Shown: positions 9,001-15,000 of the stretch, piece by piece | How positions within the stretch are numbered: position 1 is the stretch's first letter | How the letters are laid out: the number at the start of each line of letters is the position of its first letter | NCBI GenBank assembly: GCA_041498975.1 | Contig: JBGQJI010000042.1 | Span: 1-16,992, forward strand | Reading direction: 5' to 3' | Source of the DNA: Candidatus Methylomirabilis sp. | GTDB lineage: Bacteria; Methylomirabilota; Methylomirabilia; Methylomirabilales; Methylomirabilaceae | DNA length: 16,992 nt | Program-made: the position numbers

Positions 9001-12000
9001 CTGACCCCGCCTTCGGACTCCAGCCTAGAAGTCCCGTAGCATGTGTTTTCCGGCGGCTGGGCCGCCCTCGCGCACCTTGCCGCTGCGAGCGGCTGGAACC
9101 GCGCGAACCGATCCCGGTCTCTTGAGAGCGCGGAGCCTGCCCCGAGCAGTGCCGAGCGGGTTCGCTCCCCCCATGCCTCTTCATCCATGCCGACGCATTT
9201 GTTCGCTCTACCCGCTCCTGCGGTGATGCCTATCCGTGGAGCATCATCGCGAGCCACAGGGCCACCCCCCCTCCGACGCTGGTGGCGATAAGGCCGCGCC
9301 GCACCTGGCGCTTTGCGCCTTCAGCAGAGGGGCTTCTCGCGAGTCTCGGCATCCAGGCAAGGCTCAATCCGATCTGGATCCCGATCATGGCCGAGACGAT
9401 CAGGAGCTTGCCGGTGAGGCGTCTGAGGAAGGCCGGCTGGAAGGCAAATCCGATATCAACCCCTACCCTCAAGAGGTTGAATATCCCTGTCAGCACCAGG
9501 AGTTCGATGGCCAGCCAGGACCATCGGAGATACCGTCTTCCAAGGCGAAGCAGCAATTCCTCCCAGGAGGCCGGATCGATGCTTCTGCGAACCGGGGGTA
9601 GCCAGAGCAGGCTGAAAAAAGCGGAAGAGCCGATCCAGGTGAAAGCGGCGAACAGGTGGAGGGAAAGGTTGAGCAGCCCCAGGGACCCCATAGATGCCGC
9701 CTACATGCCGAAGCGGTCCCTCGCCTCATCCATCACCTCGGCAGTGATCTTCTGATACCCCTTCTCCTCCGCGTACTGTTCGATCCCTTTCTGGGCCCAC
9801 GAGCGCACGAAACTGGGGATATTGCTCAGGCGCTGTGCCGCCTCCTCGGTCCAGATCGCTCGATGTGCTGGACCTTGCCGCTCGAAGGCGGCGTTGGCGA
9901 TCGATGTGAAGGGACAGCCCGATCCGGCAGAGGTGGGTTGGGTGGCCGATGGCACGTCTTCACGCTTCGCGGCAAGTGTGCTCCGGATAAACGTCATCGG
10001 ATCGGCGGAGACCTGTGCTCCGCCGATCTTGACGTCCATCGATCGGACGAGCTGCGTCTCCATCGGATTGGTGAGCAGCGCCACCTGCCGCCGACAGGCC
10101 GGGCAACCGAAGATGAGGGTCAGGCCCCCATCGTCCGGCCCCTTCGACTCCTGGATCTTCATCGGTTCATCGCACGGGACGCACAGAAACTTCATCGACC
10201 CTCCTTCGCCTCGAGACGCGCCCGCGGACGGTTGAGCGCCTCACCGAGTTTGGCGGCGATTTGAGACAAGGCCTTGGACGACGGTGTCGTTGGATACGCG
10301 AGGAGGACAGGGGACCCCTCGTCGGCGCACCGGCTGAGAAGTGGATCGAAGGGCACGCGGCCCAGGAAGGGGACCCCCATGCGCTCGGCCATCTGCATCG
10401 AATCTGGCCCTGGGAAGAGCGTTTCCTCGGCGCCGCAGCGGGAGCAGAGATGGGCCGCCATATTTTCAATCACCCCCAGGACAGGCGCCTTCAAGATCTC
10501 CTTGGCCACGGTGACCGACTTGGCAACGATGAGCTGGGAAACCTCTGAAGGCAAGGTCACAATGATGACCCCATGAAGGTCGGGCAGCAACGGGAGCAGG
10601 TTGGGGATCCGATCGGTCCCGGGCGGCAGGTCGAGAAGCAGCAGGTCCAGCTCCCCCCATTCACTGTCCGCAAGGAACTCTCTGAGCGTCGTCACCTCCA
10701 TCGCCCCTCGCCAGAAGTACCCTGCCCCCTCTGTCGGTCCACTCCAGAGGACGGGCGTCTCGTCGCTGGGGAGGAAGAGGTCCATCGACACGACGCGGAT
10801 CCCCAGCGGCCCTTGTGCCGGCTTCACGCCTTCCGGCCGGAAGTCCAGGCGCTGCCCCCGCACTCCAAGCATCTTCGCCTGCGATGGGCCATTAATATCG
10901 GCGTCGAGGACGCCCACCCGCATCCCGCGCGCGGCGAACGCTGCTGCGAGGTTGGCAACGATGACGCTCTTCCCCACCCCGCCCTTGCCGCTCAGGACGG
11001 CCACCTTGGATTTGATCTTGGCCATGCGCGCTCGAAGTCGCTCCTGTTGCGCGGTGACCTGCCCCACCACATTGGAGCCGCCATCGCCCGCGATGTCCCG
11101 ATACGTCTTCATGGCTTGAGGTCCCAGGCAGCCCGGGCCAGCATGTAGCCGGTCCCGAGTGTCACGAGGAGAAAGATCCATGCCCCCGCCCTCATCGAGA
11201 TCTCGATGCCTCCCGGGAGGGGGACAGCTCGGATTGTCGGATTGACGATCACACGCGCGACGCCAACGGCACGCAGAAGGACGAGAACAGCGAGGAGCCG
11301 TGTGAACCAGACGTACCCCCTACTGAGCAACCAGGGGAAGAGGATGATCAGCATCGCCCCGACAGCAAACCAGATCACGCCGGCCCGTGAGGTCAATGGC
11401 CGCCCAGTGATGCCCGTGGAAGCGACGTATAGGGCACCCGCCAGGTAGAGGCAGCCATAGACAAGATACGACAGGGCTGCCTGGCGGAATTTTTCCTGTC
11501 GTGTAGCCATCGCCACCTTGACACCAACGTCTGCCGGCCAATCTCTCCTTGCGCGCGCCCTACTCCGTCTTGCCCTGGTACCGCTCGCGGATCGCCGCTA
11601 CCTGGACGTCCCCCTTCGTGTAGTCGGCCACCACCTCGTTCATGATCCTCCTGCTGACCTCGAGGCCAGCCTCTACCATCGCCAGATCGATGAGGTCGGC
11701 GCCGCGTTCCCTGGCCACTGCCTCGATCCTGGATTTGGTGATGTCCTGCATGAAGCCGGCCGGGACAAGGCTCAGCCGCGCCACGGCCTCCTCGGTCCAG
11801 ACAAAGGCGCCATTCGGCTGACCCGCGGTCGACGGGACCGTTGTCTGAACCGGTAAGCCGAGGCTCTTCGCTTCGGCATCCTGCTCGATGACCGACGCGG
11901 CCAACTCCGTTGTGATCGCCTGCAGCTTCCGAATTCTGGCCGTCTTCTCGATCCTGGCTTTGGCCCTTCGCCGCTCGTATCCCGAAGGAACGGACCGCAG

Positions 12001-15000
12001 GAGCTTCTTGGCTTCCTCGGTCCAGGCGAGTTTGACGCCATCGAAGGCCTCTTCCTCCTCAAGACCCCCCTCTTCGCCGGCCAGGGCCTCCACGACACTC
12101 CTGTCGATCGTCTGGAACTTCTCGGAGCCGGCGCGACAGACGGGACACTGGACCGGCTTCACCTCGCGGGCGACGTGTCCGCAGACCTCGCAGAGGAAGG
12201 CGGGCATGTCGGACGAGCGAATCCGTTCCACGGCCAGCTCGAGCGCCGCGCGGCCGGCCGCCTCCGCCGTCCGTTTCGGCATGAACATATCCATGACCTG
12301 ATCGATTACCGACGAGGTGACCACCGAGTGCCCACGCTCCAGGGCGAATCGAAGGACGGCCGTCCTCGCGATCCCCTTCACGAAAGCCGGCACGCGCTCC
12401 ATCCTGGCGAGGGCCTCGTCCGTCCAGCTCACCGCCTCTTCGGCCTTTACATCGATCGGCGGGTAGAACTTTGCGCTGGTGAGCAGGACATGGCAGGGGG
12501 CCAGCCGAAGCAGGTTCTCGGCATTGCTGCCGATATCCATGGTTTCATCGCTGTGCACGCCGATCTTGCCCAGCACCAGGAGCCAGGGTTTCTCCTTTCT
12601 GATGTACTGGATGATCTTCTCGAACGCCTTCCCGTCCAGCAGGGTGATCCGGAGATCGACACCATCCCCCGCCGCCACGGTCCTGGCCACCTCCAGGTGC
12701 GACTGATAGATCTTTGCCAGGCCGGTATCGATAATCTCCTCGTGCAGCTTCTCCTGCTCCTTGAATTTGAACACCTTCGAGGCCTTTTCCGAGAGGACGC
12801 CCACGATGCTGTTGAACATCGCATAGTGCAGGTACGGATCATAGACGCCAACCGCCTCCACCTTGCGTCCCACGGCGCGCCCTATGGCGATCGCCGATTT
12901 GAGCCCGGCGAACGATTGAGGGCTGCCGTCGATCCCGACCAGTATACTGCCGCCGTTCTGCTCCGCCGCCGGCGTGAGGTCCTTCGCCACGAGGACATCC
13001 GTGCTGACCCGCCGGACCACTCGTTCCGTGACACTGCCGATCAGGCTGTCTTTCACCGCGCCCAAGCCGAGGGCGCCGATCACGACCAGGTCGTAGCCGT
13101 TCTTCTTGATGTCCTCCACCAACGGCTGGAAGGTCCGGCCGTCGAACATCTTCCGCTCGAATGGCAGGCCGCGCTCGCGGCATTTCCGCTCCACGACATC
13201 GATGTAGGAGTCTGAGATCAATTGCAGGCCCATGGTGATGAGCGAGTCGTGGATTCTCCGCTGCCGTTCCAATTCATTTTCATCCTGGTACTCTTCGGGC
13301 AGAGTATACTCCATCTGCTTGAAGCGATAGTCGTGCATCTTGGCGGCATAGACATGCGATCCGGTCAGCGATGCGCCGAACTGCTCACCCAACGTGACCG
13401 CCAGATCGGCGGCACAGTTCGAGTACTCGGAGTTGTCAAGCGGCACCATGATATTCTTGTACATGGCCTGTTATCCCCCCTCGTCGCTATGGCGTCTGAG
13501 TGGTTCTATAGGTCAAATCCGGCGAATAATAGCACGTAACTCGCCAGAGACCAATGTTGATTTTGTCGATCTTTTCTCGGGCACGGGTTTCGATCAGCCA
13601 GAGAAGGCATGATGCAAACCACACCGGGTTTCGCCATCATGCACGCGGGGGTGCCAAAGCCATTGCCGCTCCCTCTTCTTGGCCCACCTATGCTGCACCC
13701 ATCTCCCGAGGAGGCCCGGGCATATCCTCGGGATTCAACAAGTAGTCAAGACTCATCCACAAACTTCTCGAATACCGGAAAAAGAACAGGGGAAAGCCGA
13801 TGCCAAAGCTGCTCCAGAGGATAAGCTGCTGCGCGAGAGAAAGGTTGATGAAACGGTCAAGCCAAAAGAAACCCGCTATCACGATGATGGCGGTGGCAGC
13901 GTAATTAATGTAGATGGCGCCCACAAAATACCCCTGCTCGCGCTCAAACGTGAGATCACAGGAGAGGCAGTTTGGATACATCGAAAAGAACCCCCGGAAC
14001 AGGAGCCCGATGCCGCACCTTGGACACCTCAACCGCGCGCCTCGCCCGATAATACTGCACACCCGTCGAATCTTCACCTGCTGCCCCCCTTGCTCGACCC
14101 ACTCTAGCACAAGACATCAGCCGCTGGTAGTGCGACGTGAAGGTGCTCGCTTAGAGGTGACGTGGCTCGGAGGGGCTGGGACTCCAGCATGCCTGTCGAG
14201 CGTCACCTTCATCCAAGACGCGCATTGACAGCGCCTGGTGGGCGTGGTAAGAATTTCTCTGACAGTGATATTCGTGTTCCCGGTCGCAACACGTCTGCAG
14301 TGGCGCTGAACACACCGGTTCCCTCAACGGTGCAGCGGCACTCCAGTCAAATGGAGGTAACGATGGCCAGAGGAGCGGACGTCATCATTATCGGAGGGGG
14401 GATCATCGGCGTCGCATGCGCCTACGCCCTCACGCGAGCTGGGGTGCGCCGCGTGGTGCTGGTTGAGCGGGGAGAGCTGGGACGGGAAGCCTCGCGGGCT
14501 GCTGCGGGGATGTTGGCGCCACAGGCGGAAGCGGAAAGCCTCGGGCCTTTTCTCGACCTCTGCCTGGCCGCGCGGGATCGCTACCGGACGCTGGCCGGCG
14601 AGCTTCGGGACGCCACCGGGGAAGACATCGAGCACTGCAACTGGGGACTTCTCTATCTCGTTGACCCGGCCGAGCATGAAGCGGCGCGAGGGCGGGCTGG
14701 CTGGCAACGGGAAGCGGGGCTCCGAGTCGAGGAGGTCTCCGGACAGGCGTTGCGCTCCCTGGAGCCCGCCCTAAATCCCGAGATCAGCGGTGCTCTCTTC
14801 TTCCCGGATGAGGCCCATGTCCGCCCGTGCGCGGTTGTCCGAGCGCTTACGGCAGGTGCGCGGGAACGAGGCGCTCAGGTCTTCGAGAACGTGGAGGCTG
14901 TCGATTTCATCATCGGCGAGGATCGGCTTCGCGGGGTCAGGGCCGGCGGAGAGACGATCCTGGCCGACAGCATTGTGGCCTGCGCCGGCCCGTGGACCGG

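Follow-up and report, generated by a model that had tools for sequence, protein, structure and literature searches.

The question raised by this locus is which of several genes near a cytochrome oxidase operon belong together, which enzyme they serve, and what a Usp-type protein carrying PCP_red domains does among them. The window, i.e., the whole stretch of 16,992 nt that was analysed (contig JBGQJI010000042.1, Candidatus Methylomirabilis sp.), carries four minus-strand genes at 9701-13464 (Table 1). The genome-wide survey's note had regarded them, together with the AhbD-like radical SAM gene g00841 on contig C25, as a conserved set supplying heme to the bd-like oxidase g00836, whose gene also lies on C25.

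Table 1. Genes at positions 9230 to 16992 of the window
Feature	Position	Strand	Basis
CopD-like membrane protein	9230..9691	minus	annotation, 10 bp after g01211
g01211, N-terminal CxxC...CxxC ribbon and C-terminal PCP_red	9701..10195	minus	profile match
g01212, Mrp/NBP35-type P-loop ATPase, 306 aa from ATG at 11112	10192..11112	minus	Pfam
g01213, small membrane protein, no known family	11109..11510	minus	no Pfam/NCBIfam match
g01214, Usp-Usp-PCP_red protein, 634 aa	11560..13464	minus	Pfam, conservation, structure model
DUF983 zinc-ribbon membrane protein, upstream of g01214	13688..14110	minus	profile match
DUF420 protein, end of heme-copper oxidase operon	16261..16695	minus	profile match
SCO1/SenC gene, 3' half, cut by contig end	16698..16992	minus	family match, translation

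Gene order and the constant part of the set

The stop codon of g01213 overlaps the start of the Mrp gene g01212 in the sequence ATGA, and the start of g01211 overlaps the g01212 stop. The CopD-like gene, which had been overlooked earlier, probably belongs to the same operon as g01211, and a family annotated as CopD-like is present in 25 of 80 near loci. No ABC gene was found in the operon, and a scan of the window for promoters and terminators gave results at chance level. Near-identical pieces of the window's DNA are present in sediment metagenomes; two RNA runs, in which shares were small and mostly from relatives, did not show its transcription.

The genes of the set had been described as scattered in this bin. 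They do lie on separate contigs, but scattering is not the whole story: at its end the window has the DUF420 gene and the SCO fragment (57.7% identity to the SCO of locus L006), contig C34 ends inside coxC, and this order is unbroken in genomes G057 and G064, and in loci L090 and L091. The SCO fragment links the window to the cox operon of C34, and the g01214 set of this genome is located just downstream of an aa3-type cox operon; a search of the sequencing runs found no pieces bridging the two contigs. In Rokubacteria, too, the DUF983 gene lies between the cox operon and the Usp gene.

All five genes had been regarded as conserved parts of the set, and this view had to be narrowed. The Mrp gene is found in 70 of 80 near loci but in 1 of 80 distant loci, g01211 in 0 of 19 Rokubacteria loci, and g01213 in 0 of 44 Poribacteria loci and 21 of the 80 near loci. 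The AhbD-like radical SAM gene tracks g01214 in its own phylum, with an ortholog in 134 of 147 genomes having the Usp gene, and is optional elsewhere (7/18 long distant loci). In all six anammox-type clusters, the Usp-Usp-PCP_red gene has neither radical SAM nor Mrp gene within 20 kb, and in distant loci an ABC-2 exporter ATPase occurs in 45/80. The constant part of the set is thus the Usp-Usp-PCP_red protein alone, and the module is smaller than five genes.

Among the clade-limited partners, g01212 is, as proposed, an Mrp ATPase (NUBPL/Mrp P-loop NTPase match; PF10609 at 239 bits). It shares with the Mrp/ApbC/NBP35 Fe-S carriers PF10609, the deviant Walker A GKGGVGKS and a CxxC that is kept in 81% of 69 rows, and remains below the equivalog cut-offs for ApbC (168 of 348 bits) and MrpORP (240.5 of 450 bits). 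In contrast to those carriers, it is a second paralog beside a housekeeping copy, the other Mrp gene (about 37% identical) lying on C209, and distant members of the Usp family occur without Mrp. The g01211 protein has one PCP_red domain and an invariant Cys-Pro-Phe, and its five Cys are present in 50/50 rows. Seven hits in which g01211 appeared fused to Mrp, to an ABC protein or to a radical SAM were read as frameshift artefacts.

The bd-like oxidase and its association with g01214

A profile search agrees that C25 carries a CydA-like protein and a diheme gene. The oxidase g00836 (538 aa) matches PF01654 with 74 bits; its H78, E165 and H242 align with the conserved His, Glu and His of 5DOQ, and H78, H187 and H242 are kept in at least 90% of 40 rows. 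Judged from these residues, its N-terminal helices with predicted heme ligands and channel Glu are CydA-like, and the enzyme is a candidate member of the OR-N family. Its resemblance to quinol oxidases of solved structure stops near residue 306, a diheme gene follows, and no solved structure was found for the split-barrel partner. In the accessible text of the respective papers, most Nitrospirales are proposed to use the OR-N enzyme, of unknown oxygen affinity, as their terminal oxidase (PMC12342949), and the role of OR-N-type enzymes in Nitrospina and anammox NXR clusters is called enigmatic (PMC3578206).

The co-occurrence of g01214 and the oxidase, first noted in a smaller number of genomes, holds on a larger set and reaches wider than had been claimed. 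Among 251 genomes of the phylum, 133 have both, 14 g01214 only, 13 the oxidase only and 91 neither; in the 66 genomes of the order, the two occur in 23 and 19, respectively, and together in 17. A recount in the 136 genomes of at least 90% completeness, which concerns the same phylum and is not independent support, gave 83 with both, 4 and 6 with a single one and 43 with neither; the six in which the oxidase stands without a Usp match (G581, G652, G664, G667, G673 and G678) are fragmented bins. In Planctomycetota, the same 29 of 301 genomes hold both (29/29), these being mostly one anammox-type lineage and thus not independent, and none of the 42 genomes whose CydA-like matches are confined to weak N-terminal ones has the Usp family. 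In the distant metagenome clade, which includes methanogens (a protein labelled Methanoculleus sp. shares 99.75% identity with the Usp protein of L144), a CydA-like gene is present in 38 of 80 Usp loci; none was seen in 10 of 36 loci of at least 9 kb, and the oxidase was found in 18/18 loci of at least 15 kb, or 13/13 after collapsing at 70% identity. A contiguous cluster had been reported from the unpublished G044 and from G035, and it is found without G044 in G035, G024, G010 and G007, where the oxidase is present and the stretch fetched has no cox gene on the same strand. The claim that genomes of the pMMO-bearing genus have neither gene stood for 9 of 10 pmoA-bearing genomes, the exception being G058, where a fragment of g01214 lies at the end of a contig.

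The heme-copper oxidase genes abut the Usp gene in 62-66 of 80 near loci, this genome included, and in anammox-type genomes the Usp gene sits among multiheme cytochromes and NXR, as would be expected if g01214 went with heme-rich respiratory superclusters in general, either serving them or being inherited along with them as a passenger, and were not tied to the bd-like enzyme in particular. We consider this highly improbable, because neither heme-copper oxidase nor weaker CydA-like matches predict g01214: CoxA is present in 227 of the 251 phylum genomes, and the 12 genomes with the closest CoxA lack both g01214 and the oxidase. Moreover, in distant loci without a cox or c-type cytochrome cluster (L128, L133, L139, L141 and L142), the Usp gene lies directly beside the CydA-like gene at 3-96 bp. 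Service to the aa3 oxidase was likewise rejected in view of the CoxA control and of the bd-like gene, which lies 13-20 kb upstream, outside 10-kb flanks.

Architecture of the Usp-Usp-PCP_red protein

Pfam agrees with the two Usp domains and the rubredoxin-like knuckle described for g01214, and counts three PCP_red domains instead of two; the order is Usp-Usp (1-330), PCP_red, the knuckle (C425, C428, C440 and C443), PCP_red and PCP_red. In the family, PCP_red is repeated one to six times. PF00582 is over its gathering score (135.5 bits, two stretches), and the structure model (pLDDT 95.1) also has the Usp fold, with the tandem Usp Rv2623 among its matches in a fold search (Z 29.2, rmsd 3.1, 278 aligned). 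We read the protein with the pattern G-2x-G-9x-G-(S/T), which we take to be the ATP motif of tandem Usp proteins; it occurs as G130-G133-G143-S144 and G299-G302-G312-S313, and the glycines are kept in 93-100% of 95 sequences. By domains, fold and motif, g01214 is a tandem Usp of the ATP-binding type, for which ATP binding is predicted. It shares with Rv2623, TTHA0350 and UspE the two domains, the fold and one ATP motif per domain, whereas the family is just 15-24% identical to them and differs in its long His hairpins, its PCP_red domains, its far higher conservation and its one fixed enzyme partner. The designation "stress protein" is a misnomer for this family.

Across 95 sequences with identities as low as about 33%, His44, His72, His213 and His241 are each kept in 94, and they are flanked by invariant Phe and Leu. 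The two halves of the protein align without gaps, with H44 on H213 and H72 on H241, and in the secondary structure of the model His44/72 and His213/241 sit in two pseudo-symmetric helical hairpins, the two His of each at matching height; a search with the whole model gave no separate fold match for these hairpins. We put at about an even chance our preferred reading that g01214 is an ATP-dependent heme chaperone predicted to mature the bd-like (non-quinol, OR-N-type) oxidase, fed by the AhbD-like enzyme where that is present.

Counting against a heme chaperone, the four His of the two hairpins could equally hold one metal ion, and g01214 would then be a non-heme metal chaperone (Fe or Cu) for the oxidase or for the heme-making enzymes. 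The matching height of the His would suit this, as would the CopD-like, SCO, cupredoxin-like, Mrp and rubredoxin-like neighbours or domains and the copper site that is proposed for one Nitrospira bd-like oxidase in the accessible parts of two papers (PMC6606698, PMC8115632). We nevertheless regard it as quite unlikely, since the oxidase His pair near residue 394 is outside the set conserved in at least 90% of rows, most distant loci are without CopD-like, SCO and Mrp genes, and the invariant residues beside the His are bulky and hydrophobic.

The strict one-to-one tie to the oxidase fits a subunit as well as a chaperone, so that g01214 may also be a lasting part of the oxidase complex on its cytoplasmic side, or a regulator of it that senses nucleotides, with hairpins that bind a sensing heme or metal and no cargo. 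Among its fold neighbours are the regulatory domains that cation-chloride cotransporters carry in the cytoplasm (Z 16.0, rmsd 3.5, 234 aligned), i.e., a tandem Usp fold on membrane transporters. In the accessible part of PMC8115632, a 699-aa Usp of N. marina, identified as the ortholog from length and neighbour only, has NSAF values of 0.11-0.14 against 0.15-0.19 for bd-like_3, an abundance near the main bd-like subunit that is more subunit- than catalyst-like and counts against the chaperone; it is not induced by low O2, whereas four short Usps are. The products of kustd1705-1712 of the anammox NXR cluster are 84-99.5% in the membrane fraction, and the accessible part of the same source's supplement (PMC11897245) has no row for kustd1706 that we could find. 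A subunit or regulator seems unlikely to us nonetheless, because in this genome (G000), in Rokubacteria, in Poribacteria and apparently in Nitrospira the Usp gene lies among the assembly genes ctaA, ctaB, sco and radical SAM and is separated from the oxidase gene by 13-20 kb or more, and because common PCP_red domains link g01214 to the radical SAM enzyme.

Heme synthesis and the proposed maturation route

The radical SAM protein g00841 has SPASM and PCP_red domains, as proposed. In the accessible text of PMC10452713, the AhbD cysteine motif is CX3CX2C and CX20-33CX17CX36-37CX2CX5CX2CX17-35C, and the complete SPASM motif, its eight Cys being spaced exactly as in AhbD, is present in g00841 and 47 of 49 orthologs. 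Its best NCBIfam match is heme b synthase, and at 312.6 bits against the TIGR04545 cut-off of 500 we class it as AhbD-like; the enzyme at the AhbD position of the L145 ahb operon also scores just 322.5 bits. In a tree whose sequences include no characterised AhbD, the radical SAMs with PCP_red fall into a single clade (100/98), which has that L145 enzyme as its sister (95/90). The motif and this grouping add support to heme supply or maturation. In two methanogen-like loci, an ahbD-A-B-C operon lies in the Usp cluster, and in L144 AhbA and AhbB over their cut-offs are encoded beside a CydA-like pair and the Usp gene. Heme supply or maturation as first proposed remains the likeliest reading, in view of the oxidase tie, the AhbD motif and the methanogen-like ahb operon, but not as one fixed set of five genes. 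The HemG/Y-like neighbours reported earlier were not recovered: HemY, HemH, HemE or ChdC occurs in 0 of 173 loci, which differ from those used before, flavodoxin-type HemG lying outside the search.

Besides a ChdC-like protein and a TIGR04053 radical SAM, this genome encodes HemE-HemH-HemY, so that ordinary heme b supply seems covered, which counts against our preferred reading; ahbA was not found in it. The idea of g00841 as a replacement for ChdC found no support: whether or not the module was there, ChdC-family matches turned up in 4 of the 5 genomes examined. Being surplus to housekeeping heme synthesis, under the AhbD cut-off and in a PCP_red-bearing clade of its own, and tracking the oxidase in 131 of 146 genomes, g00841 might instead perform chemistry other than coproheme decarboxylation, the set then making or installing a modified heme or a protein modification for OR-N enzymes. 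This appears very unlikely, in that its cysteine spacing is identical to that of AhbD and a g00841-type enzyme is absent from most distant loci and from the six anammox-type clusters.

Under our preferred reading of a heme chaperone, g01214 would found a family of maturation factors dedicated to non-quinol CydA-like membrane enzymes. It would bind heme b between the hairpin histidines, and ATP binding or hydrolysis would drive heme transfer to the apo-oxidase or to an exporter. Where a host needs more heme, the cluster would add supply, either as the PCP_red-tagged g00841, converting coproheme to heme b without oxygen, or, in methanogen-like loci, as the complete ahbABCD route. An add-on confined to some clades, Mrp and the Cys-rich g01211, most likely loads the three [4Fe-4S] clusters of the radical SAM. 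The weakest step of the scheme is the putative use of the PCP_red domains, common to three proteins, as docking tags for hand-over. The same 45-residue domain is known from DPOR subunit B (BchB/ChlB; 2KRU, 2L09), a tetrapyrrole enzyme that works with a P-loop ATPase; the present set has no nitrogenase-like domain, matches to BchB cover only its last 50-80 residues and do not amount to a DPOR subunit B, and the two DPOR papers searched give no role for PCP_red. All function assignments in the set rest on association.

According to the accessible part of a preprint, canonical cytochrome bd requires its own heme transporter CydDC (bioRxiv 10.1101/2022.04.07.487047), likewise a dedicated ATP-using heme handling for the maturation of a CydA-family protein. 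CydDC is a membrane ABC transporter, whereas here a soluble Usp protein forms the constant part, and the ABC that is optionally linked to the family is of the DrrA-like ABC-2 type and no CydC/CydD heterodimer. A bolder generalization, which we find doubtful, is that the Usp fold has been turned into a heme insertase that is driven by ATP and has two bis-His sites. It would be PCP_red-docked with a heme synthase and an Fe-S carrier and universal for the non-quinol cytochrome bd branch, from Nitrospira and the anammox bacteria as far as methanogens and Asgard archaea, replacing CydDC there.

As stated earlier, no paper linking the Usp-Usp-PCP_red family to bd-like oxidases was found, most subscription papers being beyond the search. 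What is known in print is the unexplained "uspA" (kustd1706) of the anammox NXR cluster kustd1699-1713, equated with the family by gene order and not by sequence, as it has the same position as the Usp-Usp-PCP_red gene in L238-L242 and L248; in the accessible parts of the sources, it is described as similar to UspA with no function proposed, and is down 2.4-fold together with kustd1707-1712.

In bacteria and archaea alike, the bd-like oxidases, which are poorly understood respiratory enzymes, are accompanied by the g01214 family, which probably loads their heme; if so, it would be a missing piece for studying them. A factor accompanying the OR-N enzyme almost without exception is a likely requirement for expression of the enzyme in laboratory hosts, so that the question of its oxygen affinity and role becomes testable. 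If true, the reading would also provide both a Usp protein and the orphan PCP_red domain with a defined biochemical function, set right labels like "protochlorophyllide reductase subunit B" in organisms that are not phototrophic, and draw attention to CydA-like enzymes that depend on heme in lineages of methanogens and Asgard archaea.

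Gene set in the window and its genomic setting

The genome-wide survey's note had placed a gene set at 9701-13464, and four minus-strand genes are indeed present there: g01214, encoding a Usp-Usp-PCP_red protein, followed by g01213 (small membrane protein), g01212 (Mrp-type ATPase) and g01211 (Cys-rich), the last three coupled through ATGA overlaps, with a CopD-like gene 10 bp beyond g01211. The two Usp domains and rubredoxin-like knuckle described for g01214 were recovered, and its PCP_red domains number three rather than two; the five PCP_red matches in the genome are shared out among g01214, g01211 and the AhbD-like radical SAM gene g00841 on contig C25. 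The CydA-like (bd-like) oxidase gene g00836 and its diheme neighbour lie 4.4 kb from g00841, on the opposite strand. The window ends with half an SCO gene and a DUF420 gene, and contig C34 terminates within coxC. In the close relatives G057 and G064 the order ctaA-ctaB-coxC-coxC-coxD-sco-DUF420-DUF983-Usp-membrane-Mrp-g01211 is unbroken; the module genes of this genome therefore most probably come after the aa3-type oxidase operon, the join of the two contigs being inferred from synteny.

Other features are collected in the table. A DUF420-DUF983 gap of similar size is present in G064 and absent from G057. The SoxYZ fusion and flavoprotein beside the bd-like oxidase hint at sulfur-derived electrons; no pmoA was found in this genome, which we took as non-methanotrophic. 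In Poribacteria (locus L249), Rieske, cytochrome b and multiheme cytochrome c genes likewise stand ahead of the bd-like cluster.

Coordinates of features in the window and in other contigs and loci (L)
Feature	Position	Strand	Remark
Lower-GC stretch (0.51) with 580-aa ORF and adjoining split ORF	2328-5080	-	ORF motifs presumably like those of an AIPR-family protein; possibly a defence island
FdxA-like ferredoxin	5667-6956	+	long Pro/Ala-rich linker, then membrane-anchored domain
First tiny membrane ORF	8253-8444	-	ahead of TPR gene; by eye resembles N-terminus of cytochrome b complex subunit, L249:1759-2625
Second tiny membrane ORF	8037-8237	-	ahead of TPR gene
g01214	11560-13464	-	Usp-Usp-PCP_red protein
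FAD oxidoreductase	14162-15478	+	between DUF420 and DUF983; we take it to be glycine-oxidase-like
Small Cys-rich membrane ORF	15490-15792	-	between DUF420 and DUF983
SoxY-SoxZ fusion, flavocytochrome c sulfide dehydrogenase flavoprotein	L086:4508-6648 (C25)		between bd-like oxidase and radical SAM
Rieske, split cytochrome b, multiheme cytochrome c genes	L087:3593-8661 (C34)		ahead of cox operon
Small protein, weak PCP_red match	L047:18322-18735		after radical SAM; 21 of the best 80 of at least 570 stretches, mostly Poribacteria
g01214 fragment, 89% identity	G058, C46:2424-2810		pmoA-bearing genus genome
Rieske-3Fe4S/molybdopterin enzyme	L179:17859-21080; L245:15085-17790		adjoins bd-like cluster and Usp gene; presumably arsenite-oxidase-like by architecture
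Split-barrel protein	L129:271-954; L126:9300-9998		PNPOx-like
67-aa protein	L184:2048-2251		after distant-clade Usp gene; family in 25 loci (clustering)
Heme-dependent redox cluster	L144:2096-14627; L145:3-13825		Methanoculleus-like loci

The Usp protein and the CydA-like enzyme as the constant unit

A scan of species genomes gave at least 570 confirmed stretches, and in the best 80 (44 Poribacteria, 19 Rokubacteria, 17 others) coxC, ctaB and coxA lie within 10 kb of the Usp gene in 66, 62 and 52, respectively. Whole-genome searches settled this heme-copper dominance as a tie to the bd-like oxidase: among 251 genomes of Methylomirabilota, 147 carry g01214, 146 carry the bd-like gene, 133 carry the two together and 91 carry neither (129 with both, 143 with g01214 and 142 with the bd-like gene after removal of four unpublished genomes), bearing out the survey's claim. 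CoxA occurs in 227 of the 251, and 12 of the 53 genomes holding the closest CoxA have neither gene; a general passenger, set against these counts, seems highly improbable. Profile searches of 136 genomes of this phylum at least 90% complete, three of them unpublished, gave 83 with both, 4 with Usp only, 6 with oxidase only and 43 with neither. No P value is attached because kin are not independent. In Rokubacteria and Poribacteria, 13-20 kb separate the Usp gene from the bd-like gene, which is upstream in one supercluster with the cox operon in between. Eight genomes of lineages outside the phylum or unplaced (including four Poribacteria, Entotheonella, Planctomycetota and TA06) were also searched, and every one carries the oxidase; two further genomes searched with them turned out to belong to Methylomirabilota. 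The G058 fragment, in a genome whose contig C160 holds a 97% identical CoxA, is either a real intermediate or a sign of a mixed bin.

Among 301 Planctomycetota genomes, the Usp family was found in 29, mostly of one anammox-type lineage, and strong oxidase matches (E <1e-70) in the same 29; it was found in none of 42 others with weak N-terminal matches only (E 6e-34 or worse), which are probably canonical CydA. In each of six anammox-type loci examined, the Usp gene has the oxidase-cytochrome operon on one side and nxrC on the other, and neither a radical SAM nor an Mrp gene was found within 20 kb. The accessible text on Kuenenia (PMC6423088) has kustd1706 'uspA' at this position, down 2.4-fold together with kustd1707-1712 and, like kustd1712, undetected in the proteome. 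OR-N clusters go with differing donor enzymes, Rieske-3Fe4S/molybdopterin (L179, L245) or NXR (L238-L242), and the available part of bioRxiv 10.1101/2021.01.16.426971 defines this family by operons with alternative electron donors.

Searching cluster representatives revealed short forms (~400 aa) labelled Methanoculleus, Methanobacterium, Methanospirillum, Thorarchaeota, Promethearchaeota, Anaerolineae, KSB1 and Nitrospinota, among others. A metagenome scan with this clade yielded 99 loci, 80 of which were kept; with a profile built from family members of those same loci, a CydA-like gene was found in 38 of 80, in 26 of 36 of at least 9 kb and in 18 of 18 of at least 15 kb (15/15 and 13/13 when collapsed at 90% and 70% identity). 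When g00836 was the sole query, BLAST picked it up in 32 of the 80; one member was confirmed by Pfam. The 80 also hold an ABC ATPase (45), a radical SAM (14), a split-barrel protein (8) and Mrp (1). The split-barrel family, uncharacterised, has invariant HLPV and LEIF motifs, with heme, FMN and F420 as candidate ligands; it adjoins the Usp protein or, in the four representatives P0233, P0237, P0224 and P0293, is part of the same chain. Some Usp proteins end in the domain of the 67-aa protein, which in P0292 gives a weak CDC48_2 match.

Because distant and anammox-type loci keep the Usp-Usp-PCP_red and non-quinol CydA-like proteins, often without radical SAM or Mrp, these two are the constant unit. 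Of the five genes that the survey's note had drawn as a conserved set, the radical SAM gene is common, occurring in 142 of the 251 genomes and in 134 of these together with g01214, and the other three are clade-limited: in the best 80 of at least 570 stretches, Mrp occurs in 70, g01211 in 49 (0/19 Rokubacteria) and g01213 in 21 (0/44 Poribacteria).

In the nearest ESM Atlas cluster, Nitrospirota is the commonest phylum. Two Nitrospira proteins are putative members of the family, judged by length and annotation. According to the accessible parts of PMC8115632, the 699-aa Usp protein of N. marina is abundant, does not change at low O2 and neighbours a 460-aa SPASM radical SAM by identifier, and a 159-aa PCP_red protein is two identifiers from bd-like_2; those of PMC6606698 give NITMOv2_0498 of N. 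moscoviensis, a 2106-bp 'modular UspA' away from the bd-like genes, transcription rank 152. That the Usp protein is a permanent regulatory subunit we consider unlikely.

Core of g01214 and the putative link to heme

The predicted model of the 335-residue core (pLDDT 95.1) is a tandem Usp fold matching Rv2623 (Z 29.2, rmsd 3.1, 278 aligned), each domain bearing a long helical hairpin and keeping G-2x-G-9x-G-S, which we take to be the Usp ATP motif. The halves align gap-free, placing H44 on H213 and H72 on H241; these, together with H37 and H304, persist in 93-94 of 95 sequences, at identities down to ~33%, and lie beside F48, L55, P56, F217, L224, L240 and I245. These residues point to a candidate ligand site, for bis-His heme or a four-His metal; a non-heme metal chaperone is quite unlikely in our estimation.

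Invariant in g01211 is a Cys-Pro-Phe, presumably like a heme regulatory motif. The best NCBIfam match of g00841 is heme b synthase, under the cut-off, and it shares with 47 of 49 orthologs the eight-Cys spacing reported for AhbD (PMC10452713, in the text available). A tree was built from 21 selected enzymes, no characterised AhbD among them. Its 11 radical SAMs of the module type group together in a single clade (100/98), and sister to them (95/90) stands the enzyme encoded at the AhbD position of an ahbD-A-B-C operon in L145. L145 and L144 each unite in one cluster this operon, one or two CydA-like genes, the Usp gene, an ABC-2 pair, glucose/sorbosone-dehydrogenase-like genes and a further radical SAM; L144 has a cupredoxin-like gene as well. 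AhbA and AhbB of L144 are above their cut-offs, and its Usp protein is 99.75% identical to one labelled Methanoculleus sp. Because methanogens of this kind generally lack cytochromes, heme synthesis seems to have arrived with the CydA-like enzyme in these 2 of 80 loci, the two related, apparently as an imported cluster in a methanogen lineage. A modified heme is very unlikely. The presence of HemE-HemH-HemY, of a ChdC-like protein and of a TIGR04053 enzyme in this genome counts against a plain supply role. The HemG/Y link noted in the survey was not found in 173 loci other than the survey's, where HemY, HemH, HemE and ChdC were looked for.

Proposed role of the Usp protein

The heme supply or maturation module proposed in the survey thus has a smaller core than drawn, and its putative heme function is kept as the likeliest reading. 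To our mind the chances are about even that the Usp protein acts as a heme chaperone that depends on ATP and matures the oxidase. It would hand heme to the oxidase, fed where needed by the added heme synthase, whose Fe-S clusters Mrp and g01211 would serve, and the PCP_red domains may act as docking tags. The observations themselves concern domains, fold, conserved residues and co-occurrence; each binding and hand-over step we infer. Such a role would resemble that of an assembly factor, as the heme transporter CydDC is for canonical cytochrome bd, which requires it (bioRxiv 10.1101/2022.04.07.487047, available part). The accessible portions of PMC6606698, PMC3578206, PMC8115632, PMC12342949, PMC12022308, PMC13474568, PMC13564367, PMC8387239 and PMC11897245 propose no role for this protein, and our literature search found no link of the family to bd-like oxidases. 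The Usp-Usp-PCP_red protein is a real cross-domain partner of non-quinol bd-like enzymes, apparently previously undescribed, with a putative function in heme handling.
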